From positions 1 to 58,137 of the IMG/VR virus record IMGVR_UViG_3300033145_001588: a DNA stretch of 58,137 bases; one strand, 5' to 3'. Below, in pieces: positions 759 to 29,264 of the stretch. Position 1 is the first letter of the stretch. Every line of letters starts with the position of its first letter. The notes below the pieces were generated by a model. That model did not search any database. It saw nothing but the letters and a program-made list of their open reading frames with translations, and had not been told where the DNA came from. Position numbers and translations under genes: made by a program. Source of the DNA: a virus (taxonomy: Duplodnaviria; Caudoviricetes).

Positions 759-953
759 TCAGCGTCCGCTCAAGCGACCGGTTATTGACCTCCTGTCATT
801 TCGGATTAATGATTGTGTTTTAATATCACCGCATACAGTACATCTGTATTGTCGAGGATGCCCAGAGTTAGAAGCCAGGGCATTGTGGACACGCTTTCCA
901 GTACCATACTTTTCATCTTGATATTCATGTATACATGTACATTTTTTAATCAT
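759..953 (-). CDS. Small zinc-ribbon-like protein
   Basis: CTC...H and CTVC motifs; GAGGAG RBS. Confidence 0.55.
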   Translation of the reverse strand: MIKKCTCIHEYQDEKYGTGKRVHNALASNSGHPRQYRCTVCGDIKTQSLIRNDRRSITGRLSGR

Positions 954-971
954 AATTTTTCTCCTCTCTTC

Positions 972-1598
972 TTAGTTTTGGCATGTTCCTTGCTTAATTA
1001 TTTCACTGATACTTTTTATTTGTTTTACTTTGAAAGTTTTATCAGCACTTTCCATCAGTTCTTCTGAATGGGTTACCATGATTATTTGTAATCCTAATTC
1101 TTTTGCAAGTTGTTTGAGCATTTCTCCTGCCTGTGAAAGTAATTCCATGGAGAGATATCTGAAAGGTTCGTCCAGTATCAAGGTATTCTGGGAATGTGGC
1201 AAAGCCATTGACCAAGAAGCTACACGGAGAGCAAACGAAGCAACATCCACGGCGCCCCCACCAGAAGCTGTGATTGGGTCAATTCTTTCTTCATTGCGAA
1301 CAAAAAACAAATCGCATTCTGTTCGGTTACGGCGCTCAACAAAGCCAACTCCAAACGTATAGGGATCAGGAAATACCGCTTCTAATGCTAAACTAACGAT
1401 GTCGGAAATATGCACTTGTAACTGTTGTTGAGTTGCCAAACCAACCTCCCTAATAATTTCACGGGCTTTTTCATGGTTAGACAATTGCTGTTTCAGTGCC
1501 TTGATTTGGGCTTTTGTCTCCTTGATGGACTTTCTGATTTGGGCACGCTGTCCCTTTCTTTGTTCCAGAGTCTGTCGGAGAGAGATTGTATTTGTCAT
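972..1598 (-). CDS. SbcC/Rad50-like ABC ATPase, C-terminal half
   Basis: Coiled coil, then signature ASGGG, Walker B LILDEPF and H-loop MVTH. Confidence 0.85.
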   Translation of the reverse strand: MTNTISLRQTLEQRKGQRAQIRKSIKETKAQIKALKQQLSNHEKAREIIREVGLATQQQLQVHISDIVSLALEAVFPDPYTFGVGFVERRNRTECDLFFVRNEERIDPITASGGGAVDVASFALRVASWSMALPHSQNTLILDEPFRYLSMELLSQAGEMLKQLAKELGLQIIMVTHSEELMESADKTFKVKQIKSISEIIKQGTCQN

Positions 1599-1621
1599 TT
1601 TGTTTTCCTTTGTTTTTTAAA

Positions 1622-1765
1622 CGCTTAAGGCTGATGGGTTTCTTGCGCTTGATGGCTCGCTTAGCTACCCTAGGTTTCTTGCGCTTGATGGCTCGCTTAG
1701 CTCCCCTGGGTTTCTTGCATTTCTTGGCTCGCTTAAGTTCAATGGGTTTCTTCCATTCAATGGCG
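1622..1765 (-). repeat. 36-nt dual-repeat array with two 9-nt variable segments per unit (TIGR-like guide-RNA array, 4 units)
   Basis: Minus-strand units: CGCCA-TTGAATGGA-AGAAACCCA-TTGAACTTA-AGCG; AGCCA-AGAAATGCA-AGAAACCCA-GGGGAGCTA-AGCG; AGCCA-TCAAGCGCA-AGAAACCTA-GGGTAGCTA-AGCG; AGCCA-TCAAGCGCA-AGAAACCCA-TCAGCCTTA-AGCG. Exact 36-nt period; intergenic. Confidence 0.8.
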
Positions 1766-1773
1766 GGTCTTCC

Positions 1774-2013
1774 TCAAACATCATATTGTGTTCTTATCTT
1801 CTCTACCCGTTCATCTATTTCGTTTGTCAGTTCTTTTATCTCCTCTCCCATGTTTCTTAATTTCTCAACTGCATCTTCCACACTTTCACATTGCCATTCC
1901 AGAAGTTCCTTTTTTAAATAATTTTGTTTCCCCGTCAGCTCTGACACCTTTGTCTTTGCTTTATTAATTTCTTCTTTCAAGTTTAACAATTCTTTTTCTG
2001 TCATTTCCGCCAT
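1774..2013 (-). CDS. Small coiled-coil protein
   Basis: Heptad-rich 79 aa; AAGGAG RBS directly after a promoter. Confidence 0.7.
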   Translation of the reverse strand: MAEMTEKELLNLKEEINKAKTKVSELTGKQNYLKKELLEWQCESVEDAVEKLRNMGEEIKELTNEIDERVEKIRTQYDV

Positions 2014-2033
2014 AATCTTATCTCCTTTACCAT

Positions 2034-2062
2034 ATTATACTGAAACATCAGTTTTCATTTAA
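2034..2062 (-). promoter_or_regulatory. Phage-specific promoter, copy 1 (TTAAAT-N17-TATAAT)
   Basis: CCTTAAATGAAA...GTATAATAT motif, found six times with identical spacing. Confidence 0.8.
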
Positions 2063-2065
2063 GGG

Positions 2066-2185
2066 CATTTTAATTTTTTTAAGCCTATTATTTTTCTTTC
2101 CCTATACTAATATATACCTTAAGCAATTTAAATTGATTTTAGAGCAAAAAACCCCGACTCAGCCTATGTTTTTCTGGAAAATTTA
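2066..2185 (-). repeat. ~120-bp dispersed repeat, copy 1
   Basis: Clearly homologous to 19407-19521 (same orientation) and 43529-43649 (inverted); the most diverged copy. Confidence 0.9.
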
Positions 2186-2469
2186 CCGCCTACACCACCC
2201 CGATTTGGATTGATTCCTTCCCTGTATGAATAGAGAGGACAGTCTGTTGTAGTACATTCCTTTACCAACTGCCGAGATCCACACATACACAGAAGACATT
2301 GCTTTCGTATTGCCCCAAGAGGTGGTCTACCTTTCCCAAGCCTGTACTTATGGAAAGGGCAGTCTTTCCCACTACAATTTTCTATCTCCGCAGCAGTAAC
2401 GGCACACTGCTTACAGAAACGTAAGACCGCTTTTTTAGGAGTCAATTGAGCTTTCTTAGTTCTTTTCAT
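2164..2469 (-). CDS. Cys-rich protein with two tandem zinc-binding repeats
   Basis: Repeated CxxC...C...CP(F/L)xxYR units. Confidence 0.7.
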   Translation of the reverse strand: MKRTKKAQLTPKKAVLRFCKQCAVTAAEIENCSGKDCPFHKYRLGKGRPPLGAIRKQCLLCMCGSRQLVKECTTTDCPLYSYREGINPNRGGVGGKFSRKT

Positions 2470-3355
2470 TGTCAATCGCCTTCTCAATTACCTTGATTAC
2501 TGGATCTGTGATATCGTTGTTTGCCAAAAAATGTTCCAAATTCTCTTCAAAAGAAACTCCTTTCTGCCATTCAGTATTAAGCCTCTCTACAAAGGCCTCT
2601 ATCCGAGCATCCCGACATTCTTTCACATCAATATGTGCCCGTGACATGACTTCTTTTTCTATGGGGAGATATATTCTTTCAACTGTATTTGTCTCCGCAT
2701 AGTATAGAAATACAGAAGGACGATGTTCTACTTGATCGATTGCCTGCCGAGTTAGCGAGCCTGGATTAAGTAATATTCTTTTTCCATCTTTCTGTATGAA
2801 GCATTTATGATTATGCCCTGTCAAAATGAAATCATAATTTGAATATTGCCTCAATAACTTGTTTGCTGGGGTATCTGTACAACCAGGCCATGGGGAGTTC
2901 CCTTCGTATGTCATTACATGCCATACCAACGCCTTCCTATCTATTCTGGGAAAAAACAAAGAACTTCTGCCCGTAGGAGTTTGTAACCAGTGACACCCAC
3001 CCAATACTTTTATTTTTCCCGCTTCTTCCAAAACACGAATACCGCATTTGTAGGCAAGTTCAAGATTGTGTTGAGGAAGATCATGATTACCATATATCGT
3101 GATAAATTGCTTCGGAAGGTATTGCATTGTTTTTGTAAGTAATGCTGGGCTTGGCTTCCAATGATTAAACAAATCCCCGGCATGCACAACAGGGCAATTA
3201 TGTTTATGTTGCAAATCCTTAATGAAAATGACTTTCTTCCATTGTGCTTCCTGAAAATCATCCGTCCGGCAAACAGGGATATCTTCCCGTAAATGAAAAT
3301 CAGCGCATAAAATAGCGCTTACTTTTTTTGATTTATATGGTATTGTTCGTTTCAT
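2456..3355 (-). CDS. SbcD/Mre11-like metallophosphoesterase nuclease
   Basis: ADFH, AGDLF, GNHD, GHNH and NPGS motifs. Confidence 0.9.
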   Translation of the reverse strand: MKRTIPYKSKKVSAILCADFHLREDIPVCRTDDFQEAQWKKVIFIKDLQHKHNCPVVHAGDLFNHWKPSPALLTKTMQYLPKQFITIYGNHDLPQHNLELAYKCGIRVLEEAGKIKVLGGCHWLQTPTGRSSLFFPRIDRKALVWHVMTYEGNSPWPGCTDTPANKLLRQYSNYDFILTGHNHKCFIQKDGKRILLNPGSLTRQAIDQVEHRPSVFLYYAETNTVERIYLPIEKEVMSRAHIDVKECRDARIEAFVERLNTEWQKGVSFEENLEHFLANNDITDPVIKVIEKAIDNEKN

Positions 3356-4386
3356 ATTTCAAGTATCCTTTGCCCACAGAAAGGGCATATTGTTGGCATC
3401 TGACTTTCTAACTTCTCTATTTTCTTCTGTGTAATTTCTATGTTTTTTGCAGTTGTTTTGATACTGTCAATGAGAACCCTCAAAGTTTGACAATGATCTT
3501 GTAAGGTGTTTCTTTTCTTCAGCATCGTGGATACATGCTCCAAAGGTTTCTCTATTTCCAGGAATTGTATAACTTTCTCATATTCCTGATCTACCTTTTC
3601 AATTTCTTCCGCCAATTTTTTCAATTTGAATTGCTGGTCATTCAGGAATTTCTTTTGCGTAAAAAGAGAAAGAAGTGGAACTACTTGCTCCTCAAGATCA
3701 AGAATACCGTCACAGGAATGTATTTCTTCCTCAATCTGTTGCAATTCTTCTACTATTTTCTTGAGCGCTGTCTCCTGTTGGAAAATAGAAATCTTCTCCT
3801 TTTCCAAATACTCAACAGCCTGAACATCCGTCTCCATCTTATCAAGGTAATCATAGGTCTTCAATTCCCCTATTGATTCTTTTAGTTGCTTGCGTCTTGC
3901 TTTGTTATCTTGCTCTATTTCTCTGATCCATCGTTTGACATTCGCCATGCTACTATCAATTACATCGAGCTGGGCGACTTTGTTGAAATGCTGGGCAACT
4001 TCCCCTGAGGAATCATCTAACAGGAATGGACGCTCTAATTGTTGTTGTAGGTTGAGATCATTGAAGTTGATTTCCTTTTGAATTTCCTCAGGGACATCTG
4101 TTCCAAAAGCCTTGAATTCTATATCATTCAGTTTGTAGAGATTTTCTTTGCCTTTGATTCGAGAAATAGTGGAAGTAGGGAGGGTGAGTGTTACCTCTGT
4201 ATCTCCTCCCCACCATGACCGAATTGAATCACCGGAGGGGCGGTTCCAGATTAACCACCGCAAAGCTCGGATAATTGCAGTCTTGCCTGAATCTGAGGAG
4301 CCTACGATAACATTCACGCCGGGATCAAATTCTAAGGTGGAATGTTTATGGGATTGAAAGTTTGAGATTTCTATAGACTGGATCAT
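3352..4386 (-). CDS. SbcC/Rad50-like ATPase, N-terminal half
   Basis: ISNFQSH, Walker A GSSDSGKT, coiled coil ending in a CPFC zinc-hook motif. Confidence 0.88.
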   Translation of the reverse strand: MIQSIEISNFQSHKHSTLEFDPGVNVIVGSSDSGKTAIIRALRWLIWNRPSGDSIRSWWGGDTEVTLTLPTSTISRIKGKENLYKLNDIEFKAFGTDVPEEIQKEINFNDLNLQQQLERPFLLDDSSGEVAQHFNKVAQLDVIDSSMANVKRWIREIEQDNKARRKQLKESIGELKTYDYLDKMETDVQAVEYLEKEKISIFQQETALKKIVEELQQIEEEIHSCDGILDLEEQVVPLLSLFTQKKFLNDQQFKLKKLAEEIEKVDQEYEKVIQFLEIEKPLEHVSTMLKKRNTLQDHCQTLRVLIDSIKTTAKNIEITQKKIEKLESQMPTICPFCGQRILEI

Positions 4387-4410
4387 TTTGTTTCCTTTTC
4401 ATTGATTTGT

Positions 4411-4573
4411 AGAGGGAGGCAGGATTCGAACCTGCACAAAGTTTTTGACCTTCGACGTGTTGCTTTCTCACAAAGGGATTAAGCCCATAACGTCTGCGTC
4501 TTCCAATGGCAAGGATTCCAGTACCAAGATTTCTCTTTCGCCCGATGCGACTTGCCAGTTCCGCCACTCCCTC
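4411..4573 (-). ncRNA. tRNA-like RNA (163 nt) with acceptor, D and T arms but an expanded non-canonical centre
   Basis: GAGGGAG/CTCCCTC acceptor stem; D arm GCGG-AACTGGCAAG-TCGC; T arm GCAGG-TTCGAAT-CCTGC; promoter immediately upstream. Confidence 0.7.
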
Positions 4574-4590
4574 TGTTTCCCTTTCACTAT

Positions 4591-4619
4591 ATTATACGCA
4601 AAAATCTATTTTCATTTAA
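4591..4619 (-). promoter_or_regulatory. Phage-specific promoter, copy 2
   Basis: TTAAAT-N17-TATAAT; the -35 overlaps the RuvC stop codon. Confidence 0.8.
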
Positions 4620-5161
4620 GGTAAAAGACGTAAAACATTAGAATTCTTCATTGCGTAATGGAAAACCGCCATGGCATCCGCTACTGCCTCATCAATGTAT
4701 TTTGTTCCAGTGAAAGGTACTGCCGGGTAAAGTTTTTTAATGGCTTGAATTGTTTCATCTTTACTTGCACTTCTCTTTCCCAGTAAACATTTTTTGCAAT
4801 CTCCTTCGCTGTACCATTCAACGCCGATATGCAAACTATCCGCAAGAGTCTGCACAACACCTAAACAAATTCCGATCATAATTGCAGCGACGGCGCTTTG
4901 ACTTCCATGAGGTTGTTCTGAAAGAATGAAACGGACGTTGTATTTTTCAATTACAGATAGGAGTTCTTGATTTATCTCGCTCACCCTTCGGCATCTGTCA
5001 TCCCCTTTCCTGATACGGAGTTTTTTGCTACTGGGGGCTGTTTTGATACAACCAGAATCCAGCACGCCCCCTTTCAGGTTGAGAACTACCCACCCCCATG
5101 CTGTAAGACTGGGATCACACGCAAGGATTGTTATCTCTCCTTTGCGAGGTGTTCTTTTCAT
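4616..5161 (-). CDS. ruvC: RuvC-like Holliday junction resolvase
   Basis: ILACDPSLTAWGW, SEQP, and DEAVADAMAV acidic residues. Confidence 0.8.
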   Translation of the reverse strand: MKRTPRKGEITILACDPSLTAWGWVVLNLKGGVLDSGCIKTAPSSKKLRIRKGDDRCRRVSEINQELLSVIEKYNVRFILSEQPHGSQSAVAAIMIGICLGVVQTLADSLHIGVEWYSEGDCKKCLLGKRSASKDETIQAIKKLYPAVPFTGTKYIDEAVADAMAVFHYAMKNSNVLRLLP

Positions 5162-9691: not shown

Positions 9692-9720
9692 ATTATACTA
9701 AAAAACGTATTTTCATTTAA
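9692..9720 (-). promoter_or_regulatory. Phage-specific promoter, copy 3
   Basis: TTAAAT-N17-TATAAT; the -35 overlaps the PolA stop codon. Confidence 0.8.
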
Positions 9721-11105
9721 GGGTATGCATAAAATTTCTTTTCTGCCAGAGATTGATCAACCTCGCCTTTATCCATCTCCACTTCCAAAGGAATATTAAT
9801 CCATTCCCATTGCTGTAGCAATTCTTTCGTGGCAATTCTATGCATCTCATGGGTAACCATATCAAATTCTGCTGGATTGACATCCAATGTTACATCATCA
9901 TGTACCTGGAACACAGGAAAACTATCCCAATTCTTAGAGTAAGCAAGCCTATCCAATTCAATGAAAACTTTCAAGAGACAATGAAAAGCTGTTCCTTGGA
10001 AAGGGTAGTTAGTAACATCCTTCTTGTTCATCAATCCGGAACAACGAAAACCTGTGAACATATCTACATATCCTCTTCTCTGATAATCTTTCCATACCCT
10101 GTTTTTCCACCGTGTGTATTTTTTATATCGAATATTCCAGAAATAGTCTTCCACTTTCTTGACATGCCCCATGAATTTATCACCATTTTTTACTTCTCCT
10201 GCTCGATTGAGTTTTATAAGCCCTTTCCTCTCCAAATGGACAAGGGCGGGAGTATCGTCTTTTAGATATGCTTTTGCTGCCCATTTCAATAAGTTAGGCG
10301 CACAATTGCCATAATAATCACCGTAGAATTGCGGGAAAACAAAGCCACTCTTACCGCCTTGCCGTAGGTTCCCTTCACCTTTATGATGTTTATCCAATGA
10401 ATCTAACATATACAATTCAATTGCCATATCACGATGCATGTCACCTTTGATAGTATCATGAATTAACTGTGGATCTTCTGTGTATACACACGCCATTCGA
10501 ACTTCAATTCCTGAGAAATCCATCCCTGCAAATTGGTAACCTTTACGGGGAAAAATTGCCCCTCGTGTCACTCTCCTAGCCTGTTCATCCCGTTTTGGTA
10601 TGTTTTGGAAATTCGGGGAATCTGAACTGGAGCGGAAAGTACGTACCAAATGCAAATTGAAAGAAGGATGAATCACTCCGTTTACTTGTTCACGCATATA
10701 GGCATCTAAATATGTATCTCTAACTTTCATTAGTTTGCGTACTCGTATTATTGCGTCTAATTCAGGAATTCCGAGAGCACTAAGTGCCTCCTCATCTGTT
10801 GCCCCTCTGCCGGAGGCAGTTGTTTTTGCCGGTTTGATTTTTTTGATATCATAGAGAAGATGCGCAACTTGATAATTAGAATTGAAATTGTACTTCGCTC
10901 CATATACATGTTTCCAATGCCGTCCAAGTTTGCTTTGCTCTACTTTTTCTTTCAGATGATTTATTTTTTTGGTGAGCTTGTCTTTTTCTTTTTTGCAGTA
11001 TTCTACATCAATTCTCAATCCAGCACGCTCGGCTCGTGCGAAGGCAAGCGTGCCCTCGTGGAAAAGATCATAAGCAGATTTAGTCATGGGGTTGGTTTTA
11101 ATCAT
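9717..11105 (-). CDS. Family A DNA polymerase, polymerase domain only
   Basis: RSSSDSPNFQNIP, motif A DFSGIEVR, motif B RQGGKSGFVFPQFYG, motif C VHD. Confidence 0.9.
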   Translation of the reverse strand: MIKTNPMTKSAYDLFHEGTLAFARAERAGLRIDVEYCKKEKDKLTKKINHLKEKVEQSKLGRHWKHVYGAKYNFNSNYQVAHLLYDIKKIKPAKTTASGRGATDEEALSALGIPELDAIIRVRKLMKVRDTYLDAYMREQVNGVIHPSFNLHLVRTFRSSSDSPNFQNIPKRDEQARRVTRGAIFPRKGYQFAGMDFSGIEVRMACVYTEDPQLIHDTIKGDMHRDMAIELYMLDSLDKHHKGEGNLRQGGKSGFVFPQFYGDYYGNCAPNLLKWAAKAYLKDDTPALVHLERKGLIKLNRAGEVKNGDKFMGHVKKVEDYFWNIRYKKYTRWKNRVWKDYQRRGYVDMFTGFRCSGLMNKKDVTNYPFQGTAFHCLLKVFIELDRLAYSKNWDSFPVFQVHDDVTLDVNPAEFDMVTHEMHRIATKELLQQWEWINIPLEVEMDKGEVDQSLAEKKFYAYP

Positions 11106-11272
11106 GATATCTCCAATTTGATTTCAATTATTCTTTGACGGGCTCTTGCATTATTCACATCTTTATCAGGAAAACGTTCTATATTGATTCTTTGGATATA
11201 CGTTCCCGTCGATTCCTCATGTGTAGTTAGTATAGACAGTAGATCTTCTACGAATTTTTCTGTTGGATTCAT
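11102..11272 (-). CDS. 56-aa hypothetical protein between the two polymerase halves
   Basis: MNPTEKFVEDLL...; ATGA overlaps with both neighbours. Confidence 0.6.
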   Translation of the reverse strand: MNPTEKFVEDLLSILTTHEESTGTYIQRINIERFPDKDVNNARARQRIIEIKLEIS

Positions 11273-12486
11273 ATTCCCATCTCCTCTCTTTGTTGCATTG
11301 CCAATCTATATGTATATAATGAATCAAGCGCGCAATATGTCAGGAGTTTTTCCTTTCCTCCAGGTTTCTCTATCAATTCCAATACTTTGTTAAGCGAATT
11401 TGCATTCTTTGATTCTACTCCTTTCAAGTAAGGGGAGATTTCACTATCATAATCAATAATACCTTGCTGCACATACGTCTGAAATTTTAGGGAATTTACT
11501 CCTGGTCTATTATCAAGGATATGTGCTGCCAACATTGAATCCCAGAACCACCCTTGTACAGTTTGACGCAGTCTGATGGCACTCCAGGTATCTTCAAATT
11601 TAATGTTATGCGCTATCTTTTTGATATTGGGATTGCTCAGCATCCCAGTAAATTTTCTTCTACCGGTAAGAGAAGAAGGCATCATAAAAGCATATACCTC
11701 ATTCTCATTGTATGCAATAGAAGCGCAAACAATTCGATGTCCTTTCGCATGCGGTTTTATTCCCGTTGTTTCGTAATCAAATGCTACTAAAGTAGGAAAT
11801 GTGGGCAAATCAGATGGACTGTCTATAATATGAATACACTCTTCCGCTGTCTTGTATGCTGGAAAAGGTTCTTCCAACATTGAAAAAGCTCTGGATAAAT
11901 CTTGTTTCCATATTGTATTGGCTTCATCCGTACTGAGTCTTTCAATGTAAGAAGGATGGAAAGTAGGACATAACCAACCTTGCGCATCTAAATCTGGAAT
12001 AGCCCAACCACGCCACTTAGTAATCCCACCGAAATTCTTTTTCCACCGGTGCCCAATCAACGAAGTGATTGCTGCATTTCCTAAGGCAACTACAACTTTT
12101 GGTTTCTTCTCCTCTATGACTTTCCACACCCGGGAACGACAGCAAGCTATTTCATAATCAGTTGGGGCTCTGTTATTTCCTTTCTTATCCATTGGTCGGC
12201 AATTCGCCGAGTTAATATTCAAGCAATCTTCAAAGAGATCAATCCCGAGTTCCTTGTACGTCCGTTGTAATAACCGGCCTACTTTTCCTTGCCATTGTTT
12301 ACCACGGGCGTCCTCCGTTTCACCTGGCGCTTCTCCTACATTAAGAATTCCCTTTTTGAAGTTCCCGAAGGGTTCCATGCGAGGTGATTTGGCATGCTGA
12401 TAAAGACCACAGGCAGCACAAGAAACGGGCTTGCCTTTTACACGATTAATGTTTTCCTTCTTAGGGAGATCAAAGAATCCTCTCAT
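11269..12486 (-). CDS. Uracil-DNA glycosylase (family 4-like) fused to a 3'-5' exonuclease
   Basis: CAACGL, GEAPG, CRP..NRAPT, TFHPS; ExoI DYETTG, ExoII HNIKFE, ExoIII YCALD. Confidence 0.88.
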   Translation of the reverse strand: MRGFFDLPKKENINRVKGKPVSCAACGLYQHAKSPRMEPFGNFKKGILNVGEAPGETEDARGKQWQGKVGRLLQRTYKELGIDLFEDCLNINSANCRPMDKKGNNRAPTDYEIACCRSRVWKVIEEKKPKVVVALGNAAITSLIGHRWKKNFGGITKWRGWAIPDLDAQGWLCPTFHPSYIERLSTDEANTIWKQDLSRAFSMLEEPFPAYKTAEECIHIIDSPSDLPTFPTLVAFDYETTGIKPHAKGHRIVCASIAYNENEVYAFMMPSSLTGRRKFTGMLSNPNIKKIAHNIKFEDTWSAIRLRQTVQGWFWDSMLAAHILDNRPGVNSLKFQTYVQQGIIDYDSEISPYLKGVESKNANSLNKVLELIEKPGGKEKLLTYCALDSLYTYRLAMQQREEMGI

Positions 12487-13508
12487 GCCTCTTCCTCTTT
12501 TCCTGTGGTTAACGCCATCACATGTTCCCAATTTTCCCCTATAAATTTAAGCCGATCTTTTTCAAGATAACTGGTTCGAATTTCTTCACAGATTTCTCGT
12601 AAGAATAATGGATGGGCTTGAAACGAGACAGGTTCCCCGGAATAACGAGCGTTGATTTCTTCTTCAAACCACCCGGATTCTCCTTCTGCCCGGATATATG
12701 TTTTTTTACTACCAAGACGAATAGATACTACTTCATCCAGAAGGAATTCCTTTTTTGAAAACACTGAAGCTTTCTCCAAGATTTCTTTTATTCTTTTTGG
12801 AAAGACAATTTTCTCCCCTTGCATTTGAAGAATAGGAGTTAAGTCCGGGTATTTCTCTTCTAAGATACGGCAACTGAAAATGGTTTTATCCTCCATCTTA
12901 AAATGAAGCCATCCTTTACTTTTGGCAACATTCTTGATATTATATCGTATAAGTTTCTCAACGATCCGACCAGGGATTAACATGTCATTGATAGGTAGAG
13001 TTACCCCTAACGAATATTGAGTGCCTCTAACATTATCACAAGATTCAATTATTCCATCTTTTTGCAGATGAATACAAGTAAGAACAGGACGACTCATATC
13101 ATTTGAGCAAGAGAAAAGACAAAATTGCATTGCTGTAGAAAGATTGTCAGGGAGTTCCTTCCAAGCGGATAATTCTTCTGTATTCATCAGTGGAAGGGTT
13201 ATCTCCTTCTGAAGAGAGAAACCGGCCTTTGCTTTTTCACTTTGGATAAGTACTTCTGTTCCAGTAATCTCGATTTCAAGCTCCTCCCCAGTTAATTTGC
13301 TAAGTAATTTGTATAGCTCTTCAGCCTTGATAGCGCCAGTAATATCAAGATTTTTCACTGGATGTGAAATAGAAATTTCATCATTGTAAGTAACAATCCT
13401 TCCATTGACAAACGCAAAGGAAGTTGATTGCTCAATCATTTCCTTGCTGGCTAATCCCGGCCGGACTACTTCTAACGCCTTTACCAATTCTTGCCTATTG
13501 ATTTTCAT
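12483..13508 (-). CDS. Sliding clamp (DNA Pol III beta-like)
   Basis: About 340 aa; SNDMSRPVLTCI and KYPD motifs typical of beta clamps; near the clamp loader. Confidence 0.75.
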   Translation of the reverse strand: MKINRQELVKALEVVRPGLASKEMIEQSTSFAFVNGRIVTYNDEISISHPVKNLDITGAIKAEELYKLLSKLTGEELEIEITGTEVLIQSEKAKAGFSLQKEITLPLMNTEELSAWKELPDNLSTAMQFCLFSCSNDMSRPVLTCIHLQKDGIIESCDNVRGTQYSLGVTLPINDMLIPGRIVEKLIRYNIKNVAKSKGWLHFKMEDKTIFSCRILEEKYPDLTPILQMQGEKIVFPKRIKEILEKASVFSKKEFLLDEVVSIRLGSKKTYIRAEGESGWFEEEINARYSGEPVSFQAHPLFLREICEEIRTSYLEKDRLKFIGENWEHVMALTTGKEEEA

Positions 13509-13527: not shown

Positions 13528-14505
13528 TCATATGAATCCAAAATTTGTACGTGGAATATATTCGGTTTTTGCTTTGCATTCGTTTAACCAACCCTCCAAA
13601 CCAAGTAGATATCGCACATTTATCAACGCTCGACATTGCCATGTTTGCAGTGCATCATATGCATACCCATCTTCCTCAAGTTTCTGTAAGAGGAGAGGTT
13701 GCATGTGTTTCACTCCTTTCCCTGCTGTCCGTGCAGAAACATTGAATGTGGAAGGAGGGCATTCATAATCCGGATTCGTAAAACCTCCTTTTGGGTAATT
13801 GATATTTCCCATCCCCGCCGCAATTCGCCACGACGCAGCATCACAACTTGTCCATGGAAACGTTCTCAGTGTGGTGTAGTTCGTTACAGCAAATCCATGC
13901 GTGTCAACGGCAGTTCCTTCTTTGTGAAGGTATTCAAATACTGTTTCTATCCATCGAATGCGTGTTGTTGACGGCATATCATTCGCAGGGGAAATTCCGA
14001 TATAAGGGAGGTACTCAAGCATCTTATCAAGCCATCGGAAGCTTTCTCCTTGATGAAATACATGAATAGGTGTTATTCCTTCCTTAAGCATTCTTCGCAT
14101 ATTCTTGTATCCTTCACGAGCAGCTTTTTCAATCAAATCGAGATTTTCTTGTTTTCGATTACTATTCAAAGCATGCGTCTCTCCCACACGACCTGGAATG
14201 ACATCGAGATTAACAATATACATCTTCTGATTTTTGAAGATTGCAATTTTCTTGAGTACCTCATGTGCATACTGAATATACGTTTGCAGATCAATTTGTT
14301 TCCCTTTATTCCAAGCTGTGAAAGCACCCGAATCTACCATGATACACCCATCAGCATCGAGGGGAAGACTATTTACCCAACCTTCAAATTGTGCAGGATA
14401 CACGTATGAAACAAGCTTATTTTTTACACCTGCTTCAATCAAGTTTATTTCACCTTCTCCTCCTCCTGACCATGGTGCAGCAAAGTATAGTTTAATCGGT
14501 TTCAT
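13528..14505 (-). CDS. dpdA: DpdA-like 7-deazaguanine DNA transglycosylase (TGT fold)
   Basis: MVDSGAFTAW, NLDVIP, HVFHQGE, HGFA, SCDAASW; adjacent to que genes. Confidence 0.75.
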   Translation of the reverse strand: MKPIKLYFAAPWSGGGEGEINLIEAGVKNKLVSYVYPAQFEGWVNSLPLDADGCIMVDSGAFTAWNKGKQIDLQTYIQYAHEVLKKIAIFKNQKMYIVNLDVIPGRVGETHALNSNRKQENLDLIEKAAREGYKNMRRMLKEGITPIHVFHQGESFRWLDKMLEYLPYIGISPANDMPSTTRIRWIETVFEYLHKEGTAVDTHGFAVTNYTTLRTFPWTSCDAASWRIAAGMGNINYPKGGFTNPDYECPPSTFNVSARTAGKGVKHMQPLLLQKLEEDGYAYDALQTWQCRALINVRYLLGLEGWLNECKAKTEYIPRTNFGFI

Positions 14506-15274
14506 ATTCTGCCTCCACGTTGATATGTGTTCCTCCACGAACATTGAATTCTCCTATTACTTTCATCCATCTGGGGGAACAAATTGCAACACAATCTTCC
14601 AAAATTCTATTTGTGATAGTTTCCATGAAAGAACCATACTGGCGAAAAGAAAGAAAATATAATTTCAAACTCTTCGTCTCAATACAGAGTTCATCTGGAA
14701 TGTATATAATCTTGATAATAGCGAAATCGGGCTGGCCCGTTCGAGGGCAGAGACTTGTGAATTCATCAAAGATAAATTCCGTCTTGTAATCTCGATGCGG
14801 ATATTGATTTTGAAAAGTTTCAAGAACACCCTTTGAGGGTGCTTCATATTGATACTGTGTTTTATTTGATCCAAGACTTTTCAAATGTTTTACCACATCC
14901 CTTTTCTCTTTCTTCTTTGTATTTGTATTACTCTGTTTTTTATGCGCCTTATATTTTTTTCCTTTGCAAGAATATTCCCAGTAATGATTATAAAACCACC
15001 GCCTATCTCTCTCTTCAAAAGCCCGTACAATTCGGTATTCACCTCTTTTTGAGGTTCTCTCAAACACTCTACCTACAAGTGTGCGAATACCGTCACAAAG
15101 TGCAGTTGCATCACTCACGCAATTATTTGGGTATTTCTTGTTGTGCTCACGTACCAACTTGGTTTTGACATATCTCAGAGAAAAGGTTTCCCCTTCATCA
15201 TATTCTCTCGTAAAGAAAGTAGATACTATCGTGTATACTCTCCGCATAGATTCTGTATTTTTTACAGTCATCAC
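14492..15274 (-). CDS. queF: PreQ0 reductase QueF with a ~130-aa N-terminal extension
   Basis: EFTSLCPRTGQPDFA, QueF motif ETKSLKLYF, FNVRGG. Confidence 0.88.
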   Translation of the reverse strand: MMTVKNTESMRRVYTIVSTFFTREYDEGETFSLRYVKTKLVREHNKKYPNNCVSDATALCDGIRTLVGRVFERTSKRGEYRIVRAFEERDRRWFYNHYWEYSCKGKKYKAHKKQSNTNTKKKEKRDVVKHLKSLGSNKTQYQYEAPSKGVLETFQNQYPHRDYKTEFIFDEFTSLCPRTGQPDFAIIKIIYIPDELCIETKSLKLYFLSFRQYGSFMETITNRILEDCVAICSPRWMKVIGEFNVRGGTHINVEAEYETD

Positions 15275-15301
15275 TTCACCTCCTTGTTATTATTTGTTTT
15301 G

Positions 15302-15949
15302 TTATGGTGTTAGAATTATCTTCTCTGTTAACGCTCCCGATTTTTCAAGAATAGTAAGAATGGATGGTATGTACGTGTTTTCAATTCCTGCGTATGACAT
15401 CCAAATCTCTAACCGTAAAAGCTTCCTCTTCACTTCTGCAACAGAATGTAGAGACGGAGGTGTCATTACACAACGTGCCCCTTTTGTGTTATCAATCTTT
15501 GTCAATGCCCATGCCCTCCCAAATAACTTCTGTGTGAGAATGTTTGGCGTTTCCTTATCTCGAAAAATGAGAGGGCGGATGAGTTCGAAATCACAAGAGA
15601 AAGGTTGTTTCCCATGGATTTTGCACCTTCCATCTATGTGAGATGCGTACATGCACCATTTTGAAGTATTTTCATTTTGAAAATCAGTGAACACAGTGAC
15701 TGCCTTTCCATTGATATAGATTTCACGACGTGTAAGTGGGATAGGAGGCACTTCTTCAAGAGGAATGTAATCAAGGGAAAACACAAGGCAACACGCAGCA
15801 CAATTTGAGGGGCAGGTAAAACCTCGTAAGAGCAATGGAGAAATATGTAATTTCTTAGGGACATATGTTTTCTTCTTGTATGTGAATTCCTCTTTTGTTA
15901 GGACAGAAAAATATCTCCCTACTATCTTATCTATAGAATCTATGTTCAT
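15302..15949 (-). CDS. Cys-cluster metalloprotein (CxxxCxxCC), candidate DpdM-like base-modifying enzyme
   Basis: CPSNCAACC plus WC...GRCKIH...PFSC; sits between folE and queF. Confidence 0.55.
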   Translation of the reverse strand: MNIDSIDKIVGRYFSVLTKEEFTYKKKTYVPKKLHISPLLLRGFTCPSNCAACCLVFSLDYIPLEEVPPIPLTRREIYINGKAVTVFTDFQNENTSKWCMYASHIDGRCKIHGKQPFSCDFELIRPLIFRDKETPNILTQKLFGRAWALTKIDNTKGARCVMTPPSLHSVAEVKRKLLRLEIWMSYAGIENTYIPSILTILEKSGALTEKIILTP

Positions 15950-15964
15950 CTTGTTTTCCTTTTT

Positions 15965-16519
15965 CTATGAATTGATGAGCCCCATTAACTCCGTCCTCGT
16001 GGCAATTTCATCTAAGAAAGCACCTTTCAAACTTGATGTAAACATGACTGAATTCTGTTTGGAACACCCTCTCATTCGCATACACATGTGTTGTGCTTCA
16101 ATGATGCAGGCTGCACCTTTTGGTTGTAGTATTTCCATCAAAGTGGAAGTAACTTGTTCTCCTATCCTCTCTTGAATTTGGAGCCTTCGTGCATATATAT
16201 CTACTAACCGTGCAAGCTTACTGATTCCTATCACCCTCTTGTTAGGAATGTATGCAACGTGCGCCTTGCCGAAAAAAGGGAGAATGTGGTGCTCACACAT
16301 AGAATATAGTTCAATATCCTTGAGGAGTACAATCTGGTCATACCCGTCAGAAGCGAAGGTAGTAAGTAATGTAGAAGGATCTTCAGAATACCCGGAAAAC
16401 AATTCTTCACATGCTCTGATAATACGTTGTGGAGTTTCTTTCAACCCTTCTCTATCTGGATCTTCACCTATGTATTGAAGTAAGTGTGTTATACTTTCTG
16501 CTATGATGTCTTTTTTCAT
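15965..16519 (-). CDS. folE: GTP cyclohydrolase I
   Basis: [38 protein letters not shown]. Confidence 0.95.
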
Positions 16520-16554
16520 GTGACCTCCTTCGTGATGTTGAGAAGTCCCCTTCT

Positions 16555-17220
16555 CTAATCTTTAGCATATTCCGCGGGATCTTGTGTGTTATTCAAACGG
16601 AAGGCTTCAAGTCTTTCCCGGCAAGCACCACAAACCTCACAAGCAAGTTCCTGTGATTTGTAACAAGTACGTGTCAGATGGAAAGGCACATTATGCTCCA
16701 ATCCCCATTTGACAATCCCTGTTTTATCTGTTTTTATGAAAGGCGCTAACGTTTGTACTTTGCCTCCTGTCGCTAAGAAAATAGCAAGATCAACCGCTTT
16801 GTAGAACTCAATCCTACAATCAGGGTAAATGGCGTGATCCCCTTGATGCGCTCCGAAAGCGATTGCATCTGCCCCTTGAGATTCTGCAATCCCCGCCAGA
16901 ATAGATAAGAAAATCATATTCCTGGCAGGGACAACTGTTTGTGACATTGATTTATCTTCGTAAGATCCTTCAGGAATAGCACCTCCTGTTAAAAGAAGAT
17001 TTGATTTAAACAAGTTCATCATCTCTGAAAGATTGATAAAAGATAAATCATTTTCCAATCCATAATATGCTGACACTCGTTTTGCAGCCTCATTTTCATA
17101 TTTATTGTGTTTACTTGCATAGTAAAAACTAACGGGCATCACCTCATATTTCTGGGCAAGTGCCCACGCCAATACCGTAGTGGAATCTACCCCACCTGAC
17201 AATGATATAATCACTTTCAT
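16555..17220 (-). CDS. queC: 7-cyano-7-deazaguanine synthase
   Basis: [29 protein letters not shown]. Confidence 0.95.
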
Positions 17221-17254
17221 ATACATACACCTCTTCCATGATTCTCTCTTAGTT

Positions 17255-18199
17255 TTAGAAGGAGAGGGTCCCATCCTTTCTTTGTTTCACCAATTTATCA
17301 AATTTGTTGTACTTAGGATTTTTACTATCTGTAATCATTGTTCCCCATGCATCTCTTGAAGAAGAAGGAAACTCTTTCATTCCTTTTTCTATCATTTCTT
17401 TGCGAGAATATTTCCCTTCTTCAAGTAGAGAGAGGAGAAACAAAGTTCTTTCACCAAATCTTCTTCCCTTGGAACTATCTTTCTTATCAGTACTCTCCTT
17501 TTTCTCCTCTTGAACACCTTCTTTTTTATCATCCACACTTTCATCTTTCTGAGAATCTTTCTCATTCTTGACTTCTTTCTTTTCCTTTGTAACTCCAGCA
17601 ATCACTGATAATGTATCATCAGTAAGATCGTCCAACTCTGGGTCAACCAATTTTGCTGCTTCTTTGATCAATACAATTAGTTTCTCCGGTTTCTCCTTAG
17701 TATTAATCTGTGGATCAAGGCCAAGTACCTCATTCAATTCTTTTGCTGCTTTTACCAACGCACTCCTTTTCATAATACTCTCCTCCATTTTTCTTAAATC
17801 TTGTTTGGGGTATATTCTATGCTTAATAGATTCATACTCACTATTTCCTCTTAACTTATCGCCCCATCTGTTCGAGAAGCCAAAACCATGGAGGCGACCG
17901 AGGCCTTCTGCCACAAGTATTTTTTCATAGAATGCTTCCAATAGTCTTCTACGGCTATTTGGTAGCTTTGTATTCTTCTCATTCCGATTGATGTATCTTG
18001 TTAATGCTGCCCGTTCGCCTCCTTTCTTATCTTCCCGTTCTACCTTTGCCATTTCAAGAGAAAGTTCTGTCACCACACGATAAAGTTCTTGCAATGCTTC
18101 TGTAGAACGGAATTTTAAATCAGGTAATGCTTCAAGAACAATGGCCGGAAGTTTGCAAGGGTCATTATCAATTTTGACTCCGTTTAATTTCCAAACCAT
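17255..18199 (-). CDS. Hypothetical protein with a charged linker and possible C-terminal DNA-binding domain
   Basis: GGAGG RBS after a promoter; possible internal start at MKRSALVK. Confidence 0.6.
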   Translation of the reverse strand: MVWKLNGVKIDNDPCKLPAIVLEALPDLKFRSTEALQELYRVVTELSLEMAKVEREDKKGGERAALTRYINRNEKNTKLPNSRRRLLEAFYEKILVAEGLGRLHGFGFSNRWGDKLRGNSEYESIKHRIYPKQDLRKMEESIMKRSALVKAAKELNEVLGLDPQINTKEKPEKLIVLIKEAAKLVDPELDDLTDDTLSVIAGVTKEKKEVKNEKDSQKDESVDDKKEGVQEEKKESTDKKDSSKGRRFGERTLFLLSLLEEGKYSRKEMIEKGMKEFPSSSRDAWGTMITDSKNPKYNKFDKLVKQRKDGTLSF

Positions 18200-18219
18200 T
18201 TTCTATCCTCCTTTGTTAT

Positions 18220-18248
18220 ATTATACTGAAAAACCTATTTTCATTTAA
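18220..18248 (-). promoter_or_regulatory. Phage-specific promoter, copy 4
   Basis: TTAAAT-N17-TATAAT; the -35 overlaps the queE stop codon. Confidence 0.8.
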
Positions 18249-18943
18249 GGTAAATTAGCGAGTTTATGTAATTGGACAGAAAATATCACGTAATCCAATA
18301 GCATAGAATATACTTGTTCTATATCCTGAACAATATCTGGAATCATCATTCCCTTGGCATTTATTGGACTGATAATAAAATTCTGATTCTTGGGGAATTC
18401 ACTACGTAGCATCAATTTTTTACAAATGCTAATCGCCTGAGAAAGATCCTCCTTATTAGCAACAACAAATTTTAAGTAATTGTGAATTGAACTACGTAGA
18501 ATATCAGCGAATACTGATAAACTAAGCATTTTATCAGTCATTCCAGATGAAGCCAATTTGTAATCTACTACCCAACTTACACGTGAATTCTGCGTGGTTA
18601 AATTAGGAGGACAAATACTTCCGTTTGTTTCTATCTGTATTTGACAATCAGTATACGTAAGGAGATAAGCAATTAAAGAATTTAAAGCTCCTTTTTGCAT
18701 CAAGGGTTCTCCTCCGGTAATGAGGATATGTCGTTGAAAAATACGACTGGATATCTCTCGTAGTGTCATCCATCTGCCTTCTTCTTTGTTTTGTGCCTGT
18801 GAGGTATCGCAATAATTACAAGGTTTCGGAAAGAAATTACACCCTTGTAAACGAATGAATGTGCACCAAGTCCCTTGTGGAAAGAAACCAGCTTCCCCGG
18901 ATATAGATTCAAAAATAGAATGCACCTTCAGTTTGTTTTTCAT
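18245..18943 (-). CDS. queE: 7-carboxy-7-deazaguanine synthase (radical SAM)
   Basis: IFESISGE, FIRLQGCN...CNYCDT, ITGGEP, IETNG, QLHK. Confidence 0.92.
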   Translation of the reverse strand: MKNKLKVHSIFESISGEAGFFPQGTWCTFIRLQGCNFFPKPCNYCDTSQAQNKEEGRWMTLREISSRIFQRHILITGGEPLMQKGALNSLIAYLLTYTDCQIQIETNGSICPPNLTTQNSRVSWVVDYKLASSGMTDKMLSLSVFADILRSSIHNYLKFVVANKEDLSQAISICKKLMLRSEFPKNQNFIISPINAKGMMIPDIVQDIEQVYSMLLDYVIFSVQLHKLANLP

Positions 18944-19350
18944 CACTTTCTCCATTCCACATAGCTGGTTGACGTTTCCCATAAACGGACAAGTGCAATT
19001 TCACCTTCCTTCCATCCCGCATTACCACATATGTACTCCAATCGCCATAATATCCAATCTACTATATTTTCTGCCGTAGGCATCACCCATGGAAAGTTGA
19101 TCACTTGTAACGTGTTCCCTTGTAACGTGTTCAGAAAGGTATGATCCAGAATATCTATAATCTCACGGGATACTATTTCTTTCAATCGGGAAAAATCCAT
19201 CACCATTCCTGTCTTGTTATTTATATATCCTTCTACCCCAATTTCCAAAAGATACGAATGCCCATGAATGTTCTTGCATTTTCCATTGTACTCCGGTAAA
19301 AAATGGGCAGCCTCGAACTTGAATTGCTTTACTATCATCATCTTCTTCAT
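18943..19350 (-). CDS. queD: 6-carboxytetrahydropterin synthase
   Basis: FEAAH, CKNIHGHSY, DH, PTAEN, VRLWET. Confidence 0.93.
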   Translation of the reverse strand: MKKMMIVKQFKFEAAHFLPEYNGKCKNIHGHSYLLEIGVEGYINNKTGMVMDFSRLKEIVSREIIDILDHTFLNTLQGNTLQVINFPWVMPTAENIVDWILWRLEYICGNAGWKEGEIALVRLWETSTSYVEWRK

Positions 19351-19374: not shown

Positions 19375-19403
19375 ATTATACTGAAAAACCTGATTTCATT
19401 TAA
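19375..19403 (-). promoter_or_regulatory. Phage-specific promoter, copy 5
   Basis: TTAAAT-N17-TATAAT upstream of queD. Confidence 0.8.
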
Positions 19404-25443: not shown

Positions 25444-25935
25444 TCATATTATACTAAATTCTTCCTTTTCATTTAAGGAGGTTTTCATATTTCTTATCCC
25501 ATTCCATATTCTTGGCCAACTCCATTCCATTCTTCTTAATTTTTTGATAAGTTTTCCTCTGGAAGCCTTCGGGTACGCCTCAAGAATCTCTTCTGGTGCT
25601 TTAAAAATGGTTTTGCAGATTAGTTGGAGATCTTGTGGGAGGTCTTGTAGCCATTCTCTAAACAAGTATCGCCCTTCAATATCATCCTGTCCGGGGATAT
25701 TGTCCTCGAAAAATCCTGGAAAATTGATATATGTTTTTTCCTTTGCACAAAAGGTAATGAGATGGTTTGTCATGATTTTTACTGCCCACGTACTCAGTTT
25801 GGCTTTCTCTGGATCATAAGATTGTAGAGCTTCGACGTATGCCAATGCTGCTTCTGAAAACAGCTCGTCGAATTCCTTCCCCGTTGATTTAGCAAAACTC
25901 CATGCTACTTTTCTAATCAAATTCAGATCCTTCAT
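25444..25935 (-). CDS. Sigma-factor-like protein (region 2-like)
   Basis: LIRKVAWSF...FDELFSEAALAYVEALQSYDPEKAKLSTWA resembles sigma70 region 2. Confidence 0.7.
   Translation of the reverse strand: MKDLNLIRKVAWSFAKSTGKEFDELFSEAALAYVEALQSYDPEKAKLSTWAVKIMTNHLITFCAKEKTYINFPGFFEDNIPGQDDIEGRYLFREWLQDLPQDLQLICKTIFKAPEEILEAYPKASRGKLIKKLRRMEWSWPRIWNGIRNMKTSLNEKEEFSII
25448..25476 (-). promoter_or_regulatory. Phage-specific promoter, copy 6
   Basis: TTAAAT-N17-TATAAT embedded in the last codons of the sigma-like gene. Confidence 0.8.
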
Positions 25936-26219
25936 TTCCCCATCCTCCCTGTTTTTTGCTCCCAAAGTTCCATGTGCATACGGATTTTTCCAGTTAGACT
26001 AACAGAATTTGAAATTGTTTTACCCGCCCGGACGGCGCCAGCTTTTCCTACATGATATCGAAGGTCGCTTTTTACAAACAATCTGTAACGGTTTTTGGAA
26101 GGCTTTTCTACGAATTCCAATCCCTCTGTAAGGAATCTAATTACTCGGTCTGTTAGAGTCTTAGGTTTCCCCTTTCTGGGACCTGCTTGAAAAGTTGCAT
26201 ATGCTGTGTTTTTCATCAT
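25932..26219 (-). CDS. Hypothetical basic protein
   Basis: Coupled to neighbours by overlapping start and stop codons. Confidence 0.6.
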   Translation of the reverse strand: MMKNTAYATFQAGPRKGKPKTLTDRVIRFLTEGLEFVEKPSKNRYRLFVKSDLRYHVGKAGAVRAGKTISNSVSLTGKIRMHMELWEQKTGRMGK

Positions 26220-28162: not shown

Positions 28163-28621
28163 TTATAACCCCGCCTTTTTGAGCGCATCCGCTAAGGCAG
28201 AGTTAATTGACGGCGGGGTTGTGTCTACTGCCGCTTTTTTGACAGGGATCAATCCCATTGCTGCCATGATTGATGCCGGCATCTTAATTTCCTCCCCATT
28301 TTTCATGGCATGAATGGAGGATGAACGTCCTTTGTAGCCGAATCTTTTCCACGCCATAAATCCCCCGCCAGCAAGAATAGTTGCTATATCAGAAGATTGT
28401 AAATCTTCCTTAATGATGATCTTGCATCCTGTGATAGGATCAAGATCATCCCCAATAACAATCCAGTCACCGCCTTTATTACTAATGAACTGGAAGGTTT
28501 TGTGCCCCTCTATTGTCCCGAGGTACACTAGGATTCCTTTGGAAGGGAATTCTACATTGTCTTCACAGACAACAATAACTCCCCATCTGCCATTCGTGGA
28601 ACTTCTTTTAATCTCTTTCAT
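28163..28621 (-). CDS. Early hypothetical protein
   Basis: GGAGG RBS; in the early operon. Confidence 0.65.
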   Translation of the reverse strand: MKEIKRSSTNGRWGVIVVCEDNVEFPSKGILVYLGTIEGHKTFQFISNKGGDWIVIGDDLDPITGCKIIIKEDLQSSDIATILAGGGFMAWKRFGYKGRSSSIHAMKNGEEIKMPASIMAAMGLIPVKKAAVDTTPPSINSALADALKKAGL

Positions 28622-28788
28622 CTTTTCCCTCCTTGCTTGGGTTTGTGTCGTTTAAAATCGGTGTGATATATTACCACACCATTTTTTTTCAGAGTGCCGT
28701 CGGTTAATTTATTGACGACACGTATTGCCTTGATGCGATTATTAAAGCGTCGCACCTCTAGAGTGTTATTATTTATTACTATCCACAT
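28618..28788 (-). CDS. Early hypothetical protein
   Basis: GGAGG RBS before MWIVINNN. Confidence 0.55.
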   Translation of the reverse strand: MWIVINNNTLEVRRFNNRIKAIRVVNKLTDGTLKKNGVVIYHTDFKRHKPKQGGKR

Positions 28789-29264
28789 ATTGCACCTCCC
28801 CGACATCCCTCGTTGTCGCAAACGCCCCAGGTTGTGAGGCCTCCGCATATTGCGCAGGGCTTAGATTTAGCGAGCCGCTTCGTCTCCGGGGTCGGTGTTA
28901 CCGTATCCGGTCCCGCCGGCACCCAGCCTAAATGTCTGAAAATGGATTTTTTAACACCATTTACCTCAACCGCCTCTCGGCGGCTGAATGCGTACAAGGG
29001 CACTATTTTATATTGTCTCAGTGCCGCCTCTAAAAATCCCATAAAAAAAGGCGCTCCGCCTATCATTGCGGCATGTGCGCCTCTCTCGTGAGCCAGACAG
29101 GCAATTCTGTCGGCTCGGAGATACATATCTTGACTATCCGGGATTGACTCAAATGTAAGCGTATCTCGAACTATTTTTTGGTCAGCCGGGGTTAAATCAA
29201 CTACCCCAGCTTCGATCTGTTCCTGACTCGCTGCGTGCTGAGTCAGATTAAATATTTTTTTCAT
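28779..29264 (-). CDS. First early gene; Csx20-like protein (candidate ring nuclease)
   Basis: FNLTQH..S.EQ N-terminus and PLYAFSRR..E...KKSIFRH resemble the Csx20 family pattern as recalled. Confidence 0.5.
   Translation of the reverse strand: MKKIFNLTQHAASQEQIEAGVVDLTPADQKIVRDTLTFESIPDSQDMYLRADRIACLAHERGAHAAMIGGAPFFMGFLEAALRQYKIVPLYAFSRREAVEVNGVKKSIFRHLGWVPAGPDTVTPTPETKRLAKSKPCAICGGLTTWGVCDNEGCRGGAICG

Follow-up and report, generated by a model that had tools for sequence, protein, structure and literature searches.

The DNA analysed here (the window) is the entire IMG/VR virus record IMGVR_UViG_3300033145_001588, a linear sequence of 58,137 bases estimated to be 82% complete. Its minus strand carries, at 1765-1622, four units of exactly 36 nucleotides (nt) each, arranged head to tail. 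The element is almost certainly a TIGR dual-repeat array of the SpTasH/TasA repeat type, and no gene for a Tas protein was found anywhere in the record. Read along the minus strand, the locus contains genes for a RecA/UvsX-like protein, RuvC, the N-terminal half of SbcC (SbcC-N), SbcD and a zinc-finger protein of 107 amino acids (aa), then a promoter motif, a 79-aa open reading frame (ORF), the array and the C-terminal half of SbcC (SbcC-C). The 79-aa ORF directly upstream of the array (1774-2013, minus strand) is predicted to form a coiled coil and ends in a TGA stop at 1776-1774. Directly downstream lies the 208-aa SbcC/Rad50-like C-terminal ATPase half (972-1598, minus strand; phrog_15167, E = 8e-29; SMC_N). 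Its start codon is separated from the last unit by a 23-nt leader with an AAGGA ribosome-binding site (1599-1621, minus strand). The array is intergenic, as a preliminary description of this DNA had stated.

Units and repeat type of the array

The array (1622-1765, minus strand) was delimited from the sequence itself, Tandem Repeats Finder, pattern searches, the family consensus and the native SpTIGR array, and its units follow AGCCA-N8-AAGAAACCCA-N8-AAGCG. Unit 1 (1730-1765) has one mismatch, a degenerate 5' handle CGCCA, and is not preceded by AAGCG, so that the first edge repeat is truncated at its 5' end. Unit 2 (1694-1729) has perfect constant blocks with no mismatch. Unit 3 (1658-1693) has one mismatch, its loop repeat ending in CCTA instead of CCCA. 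Unit 4 (1622-1657) again has perfect blocks without a mismatch; the AAGCG at its end stands alone, followed by TTTAA and not by AGCCA, and the last edge repeat is thus truncated at its 3' end. Tandem Repeats Finder reported a period of 36 with 2.8-3.3 copies and 84-90% matches. A search of the window for AGCGAGCCA-N9-AGAAACCCA with up to 3 mismatches gave 3 matches, all in the array, where 0.03 were expected from 100 shuffles. The whole-unit pattern with up to 2 mismatches recovered 4 of 4 units, and a reversed-pattern control recovered 0. Neither 10-nt block occurred exactly elsewhere in the window, and no further unit was found in the record. Sequence, Tandem Repeats Finder and the comparison with shuffles thus all agree with the four minus-strand units of 36 nt first described.

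Two alternating repeats separated by two variable segments had also been described, and this part stood. The segment length of 9 nt did not: comparison with the family and with SpTIGR gave a better parse of 10-nt repeats and 8-nt spacers (5+8+10+8+5), in which the ninth 'spacer' base is a weakly conserved A. Both repeats read AAG....CCA, the edge repeat being AAGCGAGCCA and the loop repeat AAGAAACCCA.

Positions 1706-1671 and 1670-1635 (minus strand) form a 36-nt tandem duplication (1635-1706) that is 34/36 identical, starts at spacer B and is out of register with the units. This duplication accounts for the spacer A common to units 3 and 4, for the near-identity of spacer B in units 2 and 3, and for the fourth unit of the window, where the locus L001 (contig G001) holds three. 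The sharing of segments had been noticed before and was borne out; its attribution to modular shuffling was replaced by plain tandem duplication. Unit 3, the product of the duplication, is a new pairing of spacers that were already present. Folding of the array RNA did not exceed that of shuffled sequences (z = +0.16), and this lack of extra structure fits the published description of dual-repeat precursors. The spacer A of units 3 and 4, TCAAGCGC, itself contains the edge motif AAGCG. It recurs with a different spacer B in a unit at G007:20883-20918 and G008:53347-53382, both contigs with tas, which may be chance given about 1,000 units.

In the published description (PMC12045711), dual-repeat TIGR arrays consist of two alternating 8-12-nt repeats (edge and loop) with two short spacers, and both repeats start with a box D and end with a box C (CCA), the two boxes covarying. 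It further describes arrays mostly of 5-15 units that adjoin a Nop-domain Tas gene, have truncated terminal edge repeats and are followed by a terminator, and TasR arrays with UG where AG stands in the TasH/TasA-type clade. SpTIGR has 16 variable nucleotides per unit and SpTasH uses an 8-nt spacer A (10.64898/2026.08.11.744272). The native locus in Salicola phage CGphi29 has about 11 units of AGCCA-N8-AAGACAACCA-N8-AAGCG downstream of SpTasH, followed by a terminator. The window array shows the dual repeat in regular 36-nt units, and both of its repeats start with box D and end with box C, as do those of the native SpTIGR array and of 1,033 family units. Its repeats match those of the SpTasH array (NC_020844), which has experimentally yielded tigRNAs. 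Spacers vary and repeats are kept, both within the array and between the window and the L001 contig, and the terminal edge repeats are truncated at both ends.

The window's exact pattern was found at no fewer than 141 loci in viral contigs, many with long arrays at 36-nt spacing; among the matches listed, these loci mostly flank TasH or TasA genes. The gene flanked by such arrays at L009 is TasH (E = 1e-99, full length, to PDB 21kl, 9vzx and others), and that at L035 is a nuclease-less relative (E = 2e-19 over the Nop part). In the 1,033 unique units taken from the matches listed, the information content is about 2 bits at each constant position and about 0 in the spacers, a consensus that the window units fit. 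Together with the alignment to the SpTIGR repeats (edge 10/10, loop 8/10), this supports the earlier proposal of a TIGR-type guide-RNA array in a phage. A search of the whole window against Rfam at gathering scores returned nothing, and window 900-2500 had no match to isolated phages in blastn (distant mode). A metagenome scan for an extension past the left end of the record yielded only contigs of 3.8 kb and 1 kb.

TIGR arrays give rise to spurious ORFs. A 111-aa plus-strand ORF (1586-1921) lies over the window array and 'matches' other arrays in tblastn; it was rejected as a gene and regarded as a repeat artefact, since its 'homologs' are those arrays. In the Salicola phage record (L227, 2396-2596) the annotation includes a hypothetical protein, SLPG_00019, that lies partly over the start of the SpTIGR array.

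Tas genes in the record and in related phages

The record was searched for a Tas effector at several levels of sensitivity. Pfam Nop (PF01798) gave 0 matches at E <=1 in the six frames of the record, and Pfam searches of 73 ORFs gave no Nop or Transposase_20 domain. The TasH protein as query and a 25-sequence Tas profile each gave 0 matches in the record at E <=10. A 35-sequence hidden Markov model (HMM), run with all filters off (--max) on 994 six-frame pieces of the record, had a best E of 3.5. The same profiles scored 1e-78 to 1e-96 in the positive controls G003, G005 and G007. No Nop-domain Tas gene (TasA, TasH or TasR) was thus found adjoining the array or anywhere in the 58-kilobase (kb) record, and the preliminary description was correct on this point.

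The Tas proteins encoded beside such arrays all recognise each other, and in their alignment (A1) the C-terminal Y300 is invariant and H310 near-invariant; these residues probably correspond to the processing dyad described for SpTasH. Any protein able to bind the window repeats should belong to the same Tas clade. In about one third of the contigs the Tas profile matches include 1-2 in-frame TAA, TAG or TGA codons (e.g. G023, G046, G073, G095, G100), for which overhang into flanking arrays, broken genes and stop-codon recoding are possible causes.

L001, 87% identical in SbcC-C, likewise has an array at the position of the window array, with 3 units. In more distant relatives no array is present: in L003 the two ORFs overlap, in L002 a small zinc-ribbon ORF occupies the array site, and in G005 the genes flanking the site are <=15 nt apart. 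The array is therefore a lineage-specific insertion. The 79-aa ORF itself has homologs in L001 (77%), L002, L003, L004 and G005. Between the window and G001, 56/60 constant unit positions are identical (93%) and 19/48 spacer positions (40%; Fisher p = 2e-9), with 668/868 identical in flanking coding DNA (77%) and 107/190 at third codon positions of SbcC-C (56%). Judged from this alignment, the putative Tas-binding blocks are under purifying selection, and spacer change is no slower than that at silent sites. With spacers of about 0 bits across the 1,033 units and 40% identity to G001, the variable segments are neither invariant nor constrained by codons, either of which had been named beforehand as evidence against a guide array. 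A second mini-array in G001, of 2 units with perfect blocks, has a copy of the promoter motif on one side and the start of SbcC-N on the other.

G005 is a syntenic relative of the phage: 29/78 window proteins match, at a mean identity of 48%, and the replication/recombination module has the same order. Between its two polymerase genes G005 carries TasH and 12 units whose repeat blocks are identical to those of the window, and the matching slot in the window contains a 56-aa ORF only. A related genome does therefore encode a Tas protein, the absence of which from all relatives would have spoken against the array's identity.

All 108 array-bearing viral contigs among the matches listed of the pattern scan were searched whole for Tas. 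Within this set 86 contigs have Tas and 22 do not, and most of the 22 are small fragments. When only contigs of at least 90% completeness were counted, 22/25 had Tas and 3/25 did not. One of the three, G004 (93% complete), has 6 units lying 1.3 kb from the contig end. The other two are 100% complete with terminal repeats. G009 has 7 units at three sites and no Tas even at E <=10 with filters off; each site consists of a -10-like element, 1.5-4 units and a hairpin, which is followed by a T-run at two of the sites. G047 has 5 units in two mini-arrays, and the one inspected is wedged between two small ORFs without a terminator, like the array in the window. A further contig, G017 (59.5 kb, 64% complete), reached through relatives of the gene downstream in L001, has 2 units and no tas.

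Operon context and other features of the record

The transcription unit that contains the array is headed by a promoter-like motif, TTAAATGAA-N13-GTATAAT (2034-2062, minus strand), both hexamer regions of which are kept in L001. Six near-identical copies of this motif occur in the window, all on the minus strand and ahead of early or middle gene blocks (2034-2062, 4591-4619, 9692-9720, 18220-18248, 19375-19403 and 25448-25476), where 0.01 were expected. The promoter placed upstream of the array in the preliminary description coincides exactly with the first of these. A terminator scan found no minus-strand terminator between the 2034-2062 promoter and SbcC-C. With a promoter of this family ahead of it and no terminator in between, the array is predicted to be part of an early polycistronic RNA that starts at 2034-2062. 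A textbook TIGR locus, in contrast, stands alone and has a terminator of its own. Among the gene products of the phage is a protein with sigma-70 region 2 (25444-25965).

The phage is of the siphovirus type and uses genetic code table 11; its ORFs of >=100 aa end in TAA (25), TGA (24) and TAG (12). It carries a replication module, a recombination module and a 7-deazaguanine DNA-modification cluster. The cluster (13528-19350, minus strand) encodes a tRNA-guanine transglycosylase-like protein (DpdA-type) and QueF-like, FolE, QueC, QueE-like and QueD-like proteins, with two unannotated ORFs. Two genes are split. SbcC is divided into an N-half (3352-4386) that ends in the CxxC hook and the C-half at 972-1598, with SbcD, the zinc-finger ORF and the coiled-coil ORF between them, all on the minus strand. 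DNA polymerase A is divided into a UDG and 3'-5' exonuclease protein (11269-12531) and a polymerase protein (9717-11105), also on the minus strand.

Between the promoter copy at 4591-4619 and the SbcC-N start, in the slot of the second mini-array of the L001 contig, lies an element of about 160 nt (4405-4585, minus strand) with tRNA-like ends, namely a 7-bp acceptor-like pairing GAGGGAG/CTCCCTC and a T-arm GGTTCGAATCC. ARAGORN found no tRNA in it, Rfam gave no match over 4300-4700 at E <=1, and its fold was no better than that of shuffles (z = -0.31). A 180-nt intergenic stretch (window 28616-28793, L228 17852-18031) is 90% identical in an otherwise unrelated part of contig G016, which suggests a shared regulatory or RNA element. 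A 60-nt tandem repeat (53798-53976, plus strand; 3.1 copies, 62% matches) lies inside the gene for an unannotated 1,086-aa tail protein.

The repeat type was also found in contigs of metagenome-assembled genomes (MAGs) from many bacterial and archaeal phyla, where about 17 single matches are expected by chance in 596 billion bases. The best cultured relatives of the terminase are only 33-38% identical. Neither the MAG repeat matches nor the terminase relatives allowed a host to be assigned.

Interpretation and comparison with known systems

The reading that we favour, as the more probable one, is that the window carries a selectively maintained TIGR mini-array whose Tas protein does not come from the record, that the phage has no tas, and that the units act in trans as decoys or pirate guides. 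The array would be transcribed within the early polycistronic RNA from the 2034-2062 promoter. By analogy with SpTIGR, a dimer of the TasH/TasA clade would bind the two constant blocks (AAG...CCA, the equivalents of box D and box C) and cleavage would occur within the edge repeat, between AAGCG and AGCCA. This would release 36-nt tigRNAs, whose two 8-nt spacers would pair with opposite strands of a 16-bp DNA target, and the operon RNA would be severed 23 nt before the start codon of SbcC-C. A related phage, co-infecting or present as a prophage, may supply the Tas protein. Most carriers of Tas genes are phages, and Candidate Phyla Radiation (CPR) bacteria have been reported as the only non-viral hosts with arrays. 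Used in trans, the RNAs could occupy a rival's Tas as decoys or redirect it as pirate guides.

Three explanations would give the repeat a different nature. If the array were the functionless, decaying remnant of a TIGR-Tas cassette since lost, this would account for the small number of units, the degenerate handle of unit 1, the mutated loop of unit 3, the lack of tas in the record and the lack of a target in the window and in 0.97 Mb of collected loci. A relic should decay uniformly, and the conservation seen is uneven: constant blocks are 93% identical between the window and G001, against 40% for spacers and 56% for silent sites. The second mini-array of G001 has perfect blocks, and the site differs from the cassette site of the relatives, so that it is no simple leftover in place; a relic is accordingly improbable. 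That the segment encodes a basic 12-residue repeat (approximately A-x-K-x-K-K-P-x-x-x-K-R), produced either when the upstream TGA is read through or as a small peptide, is very improbable. Contrary to the preliminary description, which saw stops in all minus frames, the frame of the 79-aa ORF is open past its TGA across all four units, and in L001 the same frame is open and begins with ATG. Open frames are nothing unusual for a repeat of 36 nt, and the array leaves three of six open, which is no argument for or against coding. TGA ends genes in the normal way here (24/61 ORFs of >=100 aa; ATGA start/stop overlap at 3352-3355), and its recoding was ruled out because all three stops are in regular use. 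The open frame contains no ATG, GTG or TTG within the array and enters SbcC-C out of phase; wobble positions in the blocks do not vary, and across the family the spacers carry no information; the segment is absent from L002, L003 and G005 and matches no Pfam or PHROG family. A canonical slippery heptamer, A AAA AAC, located beyond the array (1618-1612, minus strand), was likewise rejected: the -1 frame stops after 9 codons, and a frameshift into SbcC-C would take a +1 shift past a TAA. Iterons or operator sites for a phage replication or regulatory protein, suggested by direct repeats within a replication/recombination module, are about as improbable as coding. The same blocks are found beside TasH or TasA genes in phages whose gene contents are unrelated and whose G+C ranges from 41% to 62%, they match an RNA whose complex with SpTasH is solved, and all units lie on the strand of the surrounding transcription.

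The alternative that bears most on the absence of tas is an ordinary TIGR-Tas system, in which the phage encodes TasH or TasA and its main arrays in the unsequenced ~13 kb and the window array is a distal mini-array. Several observations favour this alternative and weigh against a phage without tas. Since the record covers only about 82% of the genome, the lack of an effector there need not hold for the phage as a whole. Only 1.6 kb separates the array from the left end of the record, and about 14 kb follow SbcC-C in the closed relative G012; the missing ~13 kb therefore probably adjoins the array and could hold tas. The contigs G003, G007 and G008, all with tas, keep mini-arrays of 1-5 units at 11-15 kb from it; these resemble the window array in shortness and repeat type, and differ in that their genomes encode Tas. 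The base rate of 22/25 near-complete array-bearing contigs with tas (among the matches listed) points the same way, and a Tas encoded in cis would produce just the selection that is seen on the repeat blocks. Against the favoured reading more generally, the window array departs from the described type in having only 4 units, below the usual 5-15, and no minus-strand terminator in 900-2600. In searches for targets, spacer A joined to reverse-complemented spacer B, in both orders, gave 3 near-matches in the window against 0-6 in shuffles, and 0 matches at <=1 mismatch in the 0.97 Mb of collected loci against 0-2 for scrambled spacers, and this absence of targets leaves the pirate-guide variant without support, and the decoy variant with no support other than the unconstrained spacer drift.

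Other observations argue for true absence. In G001 no tas lies within the 1.6 kb beyond SbcC-C. L228, 92% identical to the window over 1-709 only and otherwise mosaic, has no tas in its 20 kb, including 9.5 kb beyond the segment common with the window. Where G005 keeps its cassette, between the polymerase genes, the window has the 56-aa ORF. Among the matches listed only a minority of contigs with tas have units >2 kb from it. The operon-embedded, terminator-less layout is that of the closed, tas-less G047, and G009 is a second closed genome with similar mini-arrays and no tas. An estimate was formed from the base rate and two guesses, one for a distal mini-array (set low) and one for tas in the gap (set low to somewhat below even). 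It ranged from rather probable to highly probable for true absence, and a value at the lower end was adopted. The phage is thus judged rather probably to lack tas, and an ordinary system with tas in the gap is judged unlikely, without being negligible.

On the use of the units in a phage that lacks tas, the more specific statement is tentative: that operon-embedded units, as in G009 and G047, are produced for uptake by the TasH or TasA proteins of rival phages, as decoys ('anti-TIGR') or pirate guides, is possible and falls short of an even chance. Spacer drift, the chimeric duplicated unit and the absent target fit a decoy somewhat better. When 1,383 units were compared with six genomes, 0 exact matches were found, with 37 one-mismatch matches against 19-29 for scrambled spacers; natural TIGR targets are described as hard to find in PMC12045711.

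The role of TIGR-Tas, its natural targets and the origin of its arrays are stated there as open questions. Published surveys start from tas loci (TIGRFinder preprint, PMC12045711), and arrays without tas would therefore be missed. The searchable literature contained nothing relevant on orphan TIGR arrays, TIGR mini-arrays or anti-TIGR RNAs. As a TIGR array the element is of a known kind; what was not found in print is a short, operon-embedded array in a tas-less record, backed by closed genomes without tas. In the window, G001, G017, G009 and G047, short runs of TIGR units that appear to be selectively maintained are inserted between the genes of phage operons, and they occur in phages without detected tas while close kin carry TasH with identical repeats. 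The array grew by plain out-of-register tandem duplication, which produces new spacer pairings without adaptation machinery. If the orphan reading is true, the array would be a natural case of in-trans guide use or of RNA mimicry against a Tas effector. With decoy or pirate units in a tas-less phage, TIGR-Tas would gain its first described counter-measure or in-trans use, and there would be direct evidence for its part in conflict of phage against phage. Some phages may carry guide RNAs meant for the enzyme of another phage.

The closest known system is SpTIGR-TasH of phage CGphi29 (Faure et al. 2025, PMC12045711; structures 9vzx, 9w03, 21kl and others). Besides the repeat match, the two have in common the 36-nt unit of a 5-nt handle, 8-nt spacer A, 10-nt loop repeat, 8-nt spacer B and 5-nt tail, and both are phage-borne, on the transcribed strand and truncated in the first and last edge repeats. 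Unlike SpTIGR, the window has no tasH beside the array or in the 58-kb record, its array has 4 units in place of about 11 and no terminator, and it lies between two protein genes of an operon and not in a locus of its own. Box C/D sRNAs and snoRNAs, which act with Nop5 or Nop56/58, were compared as a further known system; TIGR differs from them in having no k-turn or L7Ae logic, in targeting DNA and not RNA, and in its regular head-to-tail array. For the decoy or pirate-guide roles, functional precedents are found in RNA anti-CRISPRs (Racrs), described in PMC10651486 as virus-borne solitary CRISPR repeat units, and in viral mini-CRISPR arrays or CRISPR RNA (crRNA)-like RNAs (PMC11656645 and 10.1101/2024.10.29.618823). 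Like Racrs, the window array would be a guide-RNA repeat mimic in a record without the effector. The likeness of a repeat mimic in a virus without effector holds for the window's record, from which about 18% of the phage is missing, and for the closed genomes G009 and G047. Unlike Racrs, the units belong to a Nop-domain Tas system and not to Cas, and the effector is itself mainly phage-borne, which would place the conflict between phages.

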